A stretch of DNA of 43,084 nucleotides from a virus. Taxonomy: Duplodnaviria; Heunggongvirae; Uroviricota; Caudoviricetes. The notes under the pieces are model-generated. The model was given only the letters and a program-made list of their open reading frames with translations, was not told the DNA's origin and searched no databases. The position numbers were made by a program, and so were the translations under genes. The DNA lies in the IMG/VR virus record IMGVR_UViG_2778261355_000014, positions 1-43,084 of that record, one strand, 5' to 3'. Shown here piece after piece: positions 8,672 to 9,834 of this stretch. Numbering within the stretch: the first letter of the stretch is position 1; each line of letters starts with the position of its first letter.

Positions 8672-9550
8672 TCAGTAGTTATGTACTGAAGGAGGTAATT
8701 CTTTATTCTTAAGTCTCATCCATGCGGAAAGATTCGTTGGTCCGTCTGGCTCATTAATATCAACATCTAGTGTGTGATTGATTAAAACGTCTCTCGCTAT
8801 ATCGATAATACGGGAGAACTCATAACCGCAGTCATGACATCTGCCGGAATAGTTCGATTGAATTTGTTTCAGCGCCGGATACAGTTCGCGGAATAATGCC
8901 TGTGAGCGGTTGGCATAATCCCATAGCCATACAAGGCTGTTTGCTTCTTTTGCAGAAAGCTCGTTGGTTTTCTTCTCTTGTTTGCCGATGAACTCACCTT
9001 CAAGCACTACCCTGTGGATGTACTCTACGGCCAGCGGGATTTGTTCAATTGAAAGTTCATCAATGCTGTCAATACCAAAACGCTGATGAACCATATTGTA
9101 TGCATCGTCATAGCGAAGTCCTTTCTTTCCTACCAGCATGTTTACTGCATCGCGTAGCGGTGTTCTTTCCTCAACAGTGGTTTTCTTTCCTTTAACATAC
9201 TCGCCATGTTTGCGAATTGAAGGCAGAACTTCTGCTGTTACCCACTTGCGGAATTTGTGTGGGACTGAACCTTTATTGACTGCATCGCGGCAGCGCAGAA
9301 CCAATGTATACATACCTGATTCGCTCACAATGCTTAGATTCTGCTCACCACCAAGGGTGTAACTTAAAGTTACTCCCTTTTCATCGTCATCAAGTGCAGT
9401 AAGCGCCTTGCGTGAGTTAGTCAAAGCTAAAGCATCACAAACATCTTTAGCTACAAACCACGGCTCACCGCACTTGTTGATGACGCGGATTTCACTGTCG
9501 CCGAATTTGAAGATGGTGAAATCGTTTTGTGCCTTTGCTATACTTTTCAT
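8672..9550 (-). CDS. ant: Antirepressor Ant (Bro-N plus KilA-C type)
   Basis: [44 protein letters not shown]-terminal Bro-N motif; sits downstream of arc as in P22 immI. Confidence 0.8.
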
Positions 9551-9582
9551 GTCAATATTTCCTAAGCCGATTTGTTGATAAC

Positions 9583-9623
9583 GAAGCCCTGACTGTTACC
9601 GCAGTTGGGGCTTCACTGTTTTT
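9583..9623 (+). terminator. Candidate rho-independent terminator antisense to the ant 5' end (possible sar-like antisense RNA terminator)
   Basis: gaagccc-N18-gggcttc hairpin followed by ctgttttt on the + strand only, just upstream of the ant start. Confidence 0.4.
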
Positions 9624-9834
9624 GTAAGTCACTGTAGCTATAAAGCCACTGACCACTCATTTTTGATTTGATTGACTCTACTGAGTCACGGCAAGGAATG
9701 ATTCCGCCTGACATCATTCTGATCTCCGTAAATTCACCACTCCTTATCGATTCAATGCCATCAATGTTAACTAAAGATTTACCTCTACCAAGTGCATTCT
9801 CATAGCCAATCTCATCAACCTCAATAAACCTCAT
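9613..9834 (-). CDS. Hypothetical 73-aa protein between arc and ant
   Basis: ORF start overlaps arc stop (ATGA); no homolog recalled; P22 has arc directly followed by ant. Confidence 0.5.
   Translation of the reverse strand: MRFIEVDEIGYENALGRGKSLVNIDGIESIRSGEFTEIRMMSGGIIPCRDSVESIKSKMSGQWLYSYSDLQKQ

Follow-up and report, generated by a model that had tools for sequence, protein, structure and literature searches.

A predicted sar antisense RNA gene beside the antirepressor gene ant in a P22-like prophage of Escherichia coli

Positions 9516–9623 (plus strand) of the 43,084-nt stretch of viral DNA analyzed here (the window) very likely constitute the sar gene of a P22-like (Lederbergvirus-type) prophage, the RNA of which would repress the translation of the antirepressor gene ant, as it does in P22. 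When the whole window was scanned against Rfam, the sar RNA family (RF00262) matched at 9552–9617 (+) with a score of 62.1 bits (gathering score, 43; E = 1.4e-10), and the match spanned the full model (positions 1–68 of 68). It was one of only four matches above the gathering score in the window, the other three being tRNAs. The proposal of the first-pass annotation, a sar-like antisense RNA at the position equivalent to that in P22, was thus borne out, with the element lying upstream of ant in the immI region. Rescanning a 901-nt stretch (9300–10200) gave an E-value of 2.9e-12 for the same match, and a covariance model that we built ourselves (R1) matched 9551–9614 (+) at 82.7 bits. The RF00262 score is far under that of P22 (97.8 bits; X01916) because the 5′ half of the RNA has diverged; the annotated sar of epsilon34 scored 95.6 bits. 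The same Rfam model detected the element at the corresponding position in N7, 611R6, CUS-3, phiv205-1, S.Kent, Kapi1, EC.P3, and Emek, and the versions from Klebsiella (38.6 bits) and Edwardsiella (32.1 bits) fell below its threshold. A further Rfam candidate, ctRNA_pGA1, was rejected as a generic resemblance between terminator hairpins (22.7 bits where the gathering score is 45; E = 0.054).

The window represents a P22-like prophage of E. coli in which the element is surrounded by a complete P22-type immI region, comprising mnt, the divergent promoters Pmnt and Pant, arc, an extra gene (orf73), sar, and ant. Apart from sar itself, the features of this region are as follows.

8635..8654, minus strand: intrinsic terminator after ant and before the tailspike gene (terminator scan; annotated at the same position in epsilon34 and Emek)
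8672..9550, minus strand: ant, antirepressor of 292 aa, with an N-terminal Bro-N domain (PF02498) and a C-terminal P22AR_C domain (PF10548)
9613..9834, minus strand: orf73, 73 aa (from the list of open reading frames; annotated as orf73 in phage Emek)
9831..9989, minus strand: arc, Arc repressor (Pfam PF03869 Arc, E = 2.6e-26)
10007..10033, no strand assigned: palindrome with the core TAGTAC-G-GTACTA (inverted repeat I1)
10030..10058, plus strand: predicted Pmnt, TTGAAA-17-TAGCAT (promoter scan)
10063..10035, minus strand: predicted Pant, TTGACA-17-TACACT (promoter scan)
10083..10325, plus strand: mnt, Arc/Mnt-family repressor of 80 aa (Pfam PF03869, E = 1.8e-12; the Emek homologue is annotated as mnt)

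The ant product matched PHROG 245 (anti-repressor Ant) with an E-value of 5e-108. Residues 115–292 are 80% identical to the Ant protein of epsilon34, whereas the Bro-N domain at the N-terminus is unrelated to the N-terminus of the epsilon34 protein, which is annotated as similar to P22 Ant. The Shine–Dalgarno sequence of ant, AGGA (the complement of 9560–9563), precedes the ATG at 9550 by 9 nt. The likely start of arc is the ATG at 9989 behind a GGAG motif, the listed open reading frame reaching 10010, and the Emek annotation likewise gives arc as 159 nt. The start of orf73 overlaps the arc stop codon (ATGA), through which orf73 is translationally coupled to arc, and the 3′ arm of the sar hairpin contains its own stop codon (9613–9615). 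The orf73 product matched PHROG 11805, a family of unknown function; it had no match in Pfam, and the only relatives found were close ones, in E. coli and Salmonella. The slot between arc and sar holds other small open reading frames elsewhere (57 aa in phiv205-1 and 89 aa in EC.P3), which suggests that it is a variable cargo position inside the arc–ant operon. Pant and Pmnt are divergent and overlap one another (10030..10063), a layout also seen in the annotated P22 record (X01916). Judged from its position, the palindrome at 10007–10033 is a putative Mnt operator; the Mnt operator of P22 reads GGTCCACGGTGGACC where the window has TAGTAC-G-GTACTA. A related half-site, GGTAGTAGTAC, occurs between the −35 and −10 elements of Pant, where P22 has its Arc operator. 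Because these operator-like sequences differ from the P22 operators, they suggest a different Arc/Mnt specificity. On the far side of ant, the tailspike gene (6307–8571, minus strand; 754 aa) has its N-terminal region in a segment with DNA-level matches to P22-type tailspike genes, and the C-terminal half of its product has a glutamate-rich, repetitive tail.

Within this setting, the sar gene can be resolved into a promoter, a 5′ stem-loop, and a terminator.

9516..9521, plus strand: −35-like hexamer of the predicted promoter Psar, GTGAAA (promoter scan and homology; GTGTTA in P22, at the same spacing)
9536..9544, plus strand: predicted extended −10 element of Psar, TGcTATACT, coinciding with ant codons 3–5 (Ser-Ile-Ala, AGT ATA GCA on the minus strand)
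9551..9621, plus strand: predicted sar RNA, about 71 nt, with its 3′ end at 9621–9623 (ends placed by homology and by the T-run)
9551..9579, plus strand: 5′ stem-loop of sar, with a stem formed by 9551–9557 and 9573–9579 (minimum free energy [MFE] fold)
9583..9614, plus strand: 3′ terminator hairpin of sar, 14 bp of which 7 are G-C, with the loop UACC (terminator scan and fold)
9619..9623, plus strand: T-run of the sar terminator (sequence and terminator scan), sharing its positions with the final codons of orf73 on the other strand

Taken from the homologous start to the T-run (9551 to 9621–9623), the predicted transcript is 71–73 nt long. Its predicted first base, G9551, is the seventh base past the −10 element, and the same holds for G817 of the P22 locus (L001). 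The earlier suggestion that the RNA reads antisense across both the ant start codon and the ribosome-binding site (RBS) therefore stands for the RBS, which a transcript from about 9551 covers, but not for the start codon, since the transcript starts one base past the ant CAT (9548–9550). Nor does the hairpin itself lie opposite the RBS, as had been supposed; it is situated approximately 20–55 nt upstream of the ant Shine–Dalgarno sequence. It is instead the apical region of the 5′ stem-loop that carries an anti-Shine–Dalgarno motif, UCCU (9560–9563), opposite the ant AGGA. The terminator hairpin is followed by the tail ACTGTTTTTG, which includes TTTTT at 9619–9623, and its stem (9583–9614) far exceeds the minimum length of the terminator scan. 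Terminator-like sites showed only slight enrichment across the 2.3-kb region (6, against 1.9 ± 1.4 in shuffled sequences), and a match in the terminator scan is for that reason weak evidence when taken alone. Two short open reading frames over the element, at 9529–9627 (+) and 9552–9656 (−), were regarded as chance occurrences because they were without support and the region is accounted for by the RNA gene.

The structure is specific to the plus strand. Folded as plus-strand RNA, 9551–9625 formed two hairpins with a free energy of −29.7 kcal/mol (z = −5.8, a stability matched by none of 200 dinucleotide shuffles), and its MFE and centroid structures were identical. An alternative reading is that the hairpin works on the minus strand, as a stability, processing, or termination element of the arc–orf73–ant mRNA, with no antisense RNA being made at all. 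The hairpin is located exactly at the orf73 stop codon, and the minus-strand RNA still forms a hairpin, albeit a shorter and interrupted one (−18.1 kcal/mol, z = −2.2). However, the terminator scan reported a site at 9583–9614 on the plus strand and none on the minus strand, in agreement with what had been noticed at first reading, namely that the hairpin with its T-run (9583–9623) is present only on the plus strand. The minus-strand sequence past the hairpin (GTTATCAACAAATCGG) has no U-run, and, across 127 loci, at least five T residues within the 10 nt after the hairpin occurred in 54 on the plus strand but in only 7 on the minus strand. The plus-strand fold was the better one in all 24 sar variants compared (mean, −29.3 vs −19.0 kcal/mol), and three near-invariant G-U pairs of helix 2 would become C-A mismatches in the minus-strand RNA. 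This difference of about 10 kcal/mol, together with the loss of the G-U pairs, disfavors the possibility that the hairpin functions only as an mRNA stability element, which the first-pass annotation had raised against its own proposal. A role restricted to the minus strand also leaves unexplained both the conserved −10 element and the presence of a 5′ stem-loop right after the ant ATG, and we regard it as very improbable. The sense and antisense readings are nevertheless not fully exclusive: the ant mRNA leader carries the complementary structure and would be the target of sar.

The conservation of the element was assessed among its relatives. A search with the hairpin pattern yielded more than 120 viral contigs with the element in the same context, and the 50 nt preceding the pattern occurred in 34 different versions among them. 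For comparison of structures, 24 variants were assembled, consisting of 22 distinct sequences from viral loci and phage records (the window and P22 included) plus the Klebsiella and Edwardsiella versions. All 24 folded as a 5′ stem-loop followed by a terminator hairpin; the 5′ stem-loop began immediately after the ant ATG in nearly all of them, and it enclosed a pyrimidine-rich anti-Shine–Dalgarno stretch in every variant but that of Edwardsiella GF-2. Taken alone, the 5′ stem-loop has modest thermodynamic stability (−5.6 kcal/mol, equaled or bettered by 3.9% of mononucleotide shuffles), and it is therefore its conservation, rather than its energy, that argues for it. In an alignment of 36 sequences, which was fitted to a covariance model with the stated structure and so leans towards pairing, and which includes one spurious row (the reverse strand of L099), 91% of the cells were paired, compared with 33–49% when the partners were slid. 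Double-sided changes were seen in eight pairs, five among the 7 of helix 1 and three among the 14 of helix 2, and none of 500 shuffles attained the observed covariation values. The terminator hairpin was paired in 99% of the cells across relatives, with compensatory changes in the Klebsiella, Edwardsiella, and Xenorhabdus versions. When MAFFT and RNAalifold were applied to the 24 variants, the terminator hairpin was recovered and the 5′ stem-loop was missed because its 3′ arm was misaligned. Covariation thus supports both helices of sar. A chance hairpin and T-run with no biological meaning can be set aside with near certainty on the same evidence. Such terminator-like patterns do arise by chance about twice per 2.3 kb, but the Rfam match over the whole window, the identity of the hairpin to that of P22, the recurrence of the element in one context in the viral contigs, and the covariation of its helices refute this explanation.

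Psar is predicted to lie inside the start of ant and to be convergent with Pant. Within 9480–9560, the interval proposed earlier for promoter prediction, the promoter scan did report a candidate, GTGAAA with a 17-nt spacer and TATACT preceded by TG (9516–9544, +), and this candidate is homologous to Psar of epsilon34; promoter-like sites were, however, no commoner in the region than expected by chance (4 vs 4.6). The assignment of Psar consequently rests on homology with P22 Psar: 9516–9544 aligns with the stretch of epsilon34 annotated as “located by similarity with P22 Psar.” At the −35 hexamer, the match is poor (four of six positions). In contrast, the extended −10 nonamer, TGCTATACT, is identical in P22, epsilon34, N7, Kapi1, EC.P3, and CUS-3 and was found in 101 of 124 related loci, and every one of the 124 had a TAnnnT hexamer at the −10 spot. 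Past the first few codons, the Ant N-termini of these loci fall into several distinct sequence types (e.g., MSSLAKSTVN). Because TAnnnT is kept whatever the family of the Ant N-terminus, it is under a nucleotide-level constraint beyond protein coding. Codon 3 of ant is a serine codon, AGT or AGC, in most of the 124 loci (positions 9536–9547 of the window correspond to codons 2–5). In P22, transcription from Pant influences the activity of Psar.

The closest characterized counterpart is the sar RNA of P22 (Liao et al. 1987, Wu et al. 1987, and Schaefer & McClure 1997, as cited in PMC2629481), which belongs to the same covariance-model family and has the same two-hairpin architecture, the same position abutting the ant ATG, the same antisense orientation to the ant RBS, and the same mnt/arc/ant immI setting. 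All 32 nt of the terminator hairpin are identical between the two, as is the −10 element, placed 7 nt before a G start. The first 32 nt, in contrast, share only 13 identities in ungapped register. In the Rfam alignment, the 5′ stem reads UCAAUA/UGUUGA in the window and GUUGGU/ACUGAC in P22, so that both partners differ in five of the six pairs and a single partner in the sixth, and the anti-Shine–Dalgarno motif is UCCU rather than CUCC. The T-run of the window (TTTTT) is longer than that of P22 (TTT) and, owing to the presence of orf73 between arc and sar, extends into the final codons of that gene, whereas the sar of P22, which has no orf73, abuts arc. In epsilon34 (EU570103; PMC2629481), the annotation explicitly names sar and Psar on the basis of similarity to P22, and the window aligns to both; epsilon34 nevertheless has a P22-type 5′ stem-loop and the arc-adjacent layout, whereas the window has a GUCAAUA-type stem-loop, shared with Kapi1 and EC.P3, and an orf73-type right flank, shared with Emek and 611R6.

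The sar gene of the window could be a homologue by descent that has become a silent or decayed relic without regulatory output in this prophage. The weak −35 hexamer and the mosaic context of the prophage are compatible with decay, as is the finding that one E. coli genome carrying an identical 201-nt segment has a truncated pseudogene in place of the neighboring ant. Against this, the functional motifs are intact (the P22-identical extended −10 element, the G at +1, and the run of five T residues), both helices are fully paired, the anti-Shine–Dalgarno motif matches the local ant Shine–Dalgarno sequence, and the 5′ stem-loop has co-evolved with this particular ant leader instead of decaying. 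Moreover, ant, arc, and mnt are all intact in the window. We therefore consider a relic very improbable and favor a working sar gene.

The way in which such a gene would act can be taken from P22, where Sar, a 69-nt antisense RNA (PMC3134472), binds the ant RBS and inhibits the production of Ant post-transcriptionally (PMC10732415, PMC7968456), and where small-RNA reads from infected Salmonella align over the sar locus (PMC13397905). By analogy, a sigma-70 promoter with an extended −10 element in the first ant codons, directed away from ant, would give rise, from G9551 onwards, to an RNA of about 71 nt that ends at the intrinsic terminator formed by the hairpin at 9583–9614 and TTTTT. This RNA would be fully complementary to the leader of the ant mRNA, and its 5′ stem-loop would present the anti-Shine–Dalgarno UCCU; pairing with the leader would then occlude the RBS and block the synthesis of Ant. 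The repression may be aimed particularly at transcripts that escape the repression of Pant by Mnt and Arc. Read-through of the late operon towards the tailspike gene would be one such target, given that the late promoter, which the Arc/Mnt control of Pant does not cover, also drives transcription of arc and ant (PMC12111858). Translational repression of ant is, on the P22 precedent, the most likely mechanism, and sar RNA would be made and act in trans in this prophage as well.

Short phage RNAs of comparable function are found elsewhere. The c4 RNA of P1 and P7 is a short phage RNA with a terminator hairpin that represses an antirepressor or switch protein post-transcriptionally. The CA RNA of N15 (PMC10732415) and the OOP RNA of lambda (PMC3134472) are likewise short, carry terminator hairpins, and act as post-transcriptional repressors of an antirepressor or switch protein. 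These three RNAs are unrelated to sar in sequence and were not matched by RF00262, so the likeness is one of working only; furthermore, c4 and CA arise by processing of longer transcripts and have upstream sites as their targets, and OOP targets the 3′ end of cII.

The window is a mosaic that has the sar gene at its junction. Three complete E. coli chromosomes carry the 201 nt around sar (9480–9680) with 100% identity, and matches to this segment were found in 539 of 5,426 complete E. coli genomes. On a larger scale, sizable parts of the window match EC.P3, E212, phiv205-1, Kapi1, and CUS-3. The homology with CUS-3 begins at 2878, within a tRNA-Arg(CCU) gene (2833–2907, +) that is probably the attachment-site tRNA and one boundary of the prophage; a tRNA-Thr(UGU)/tRNA-Asn(GUU) pair lies at 29239–29394 (−). 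Within 9480–9680, the matched span is 9480–9615 in Kapi1 and PhiR12, approximately 9535–9680 in Emek and 611R6, and only 9535–9615 in P22. In other words, the relatives of the left flank (Kapi1 and PhiR12) and those of the right flank (Emek and 611R6) overlap only at sar. The gene from its −10 element to the end of the hairpin (9535–9615) is accordingly a conserved island between non-homologous flanks, at a mosaic junction, and the CUS-3 record labels the stretch starting at sar as a “boundary sequence.” Among the 124 loci, grouping the 5′ stem-loops by the first 7 nt of the 5′ arm gave at least 10 classes, and these classes reassort freely with those of the 3′ flank. Pairing over the RBS segment is much weaker across classes, at −12 to −19 kcal/mol compared with −50 to −55 kcal/mol.

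From these observations, we tentatively entertain the idea, which we do not hold to be probable, that sar is a two-part module, in which the near-invariant hairpin serves as a crossover point or a handle for cross-talk and the variable 5′ stem-loop defines classes of antisense specificity. The reassortment and the classes themselves are observed; what they may entail for specificity and cross-talk is putative. If the idea is correct, the near-invariant hairpin would be a homologous crossover point for swapping ant modules and arc/cargo modules among P22-like phages, and, being shared, it might let the sar RNA of one prophage pair with the ant leader of another phage. The 5′ stem-loop, co-evolving with each ant RBS, would then set which incoming Ant a resident prophage silences.

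The element is unannotated in the records of Emek, Kapi1, EC.P3, and 611R6, as well as at the identical locus in a RefSeq E. coli chromosome. Because it is unannotated both here and in these nearest relatives, the sar of the window is a new member of the family. In the Kapi1 record (MT813197), the anti-repressor coding sequence (693–1637 of L004) is annotated across the whole sar region up to arc; the sar match at 1573–1639 of the same locus places the true ant start approximately 66 nt downstream of the annotated one. In E. coli 203740 (NZ_CP025913; 1293–1571 of L134), a genome with the identical 201-nt sar segment, the ant next to it is annotated as a truncated pseudogene and sar, orf73, arc, and mnt remain, with a second Arc-family gene pair just beyond. 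When genome contigs were scanned with a form of the hairpin pattern that had one N too many between GAAGCC and GTT, 35 matches were obtained, almost all of them chance occurrences in unrelated bacteria, and rescoring with R1 left a single real one, in Xenorhabdus ehlersii. This sar homologue from outside E. coli and Salmonella (strain DSM 16337; 3643–3711 of L148, minus strand) lies beside an Ant-like open reading frame and has a perfect extended −10 element (TGCTATAAT), a 5′ stem-loop of its own (GUCUA...UAGAC), and a terminator hairpin of 15 bp with one extra C-G pair.

The family, location, and mechanism of sar are textbook knowledge, and the present member adds no new biology to the P22 paradigm; its value lies mainly in annotation. 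Recognizing sar fixes the start codon of ant and explains the nucleotide-level constraint on ant codons 3–5. Furthermore, it marks the prophage as one that carries a complete, and probably functional, antirepressor control circuit.
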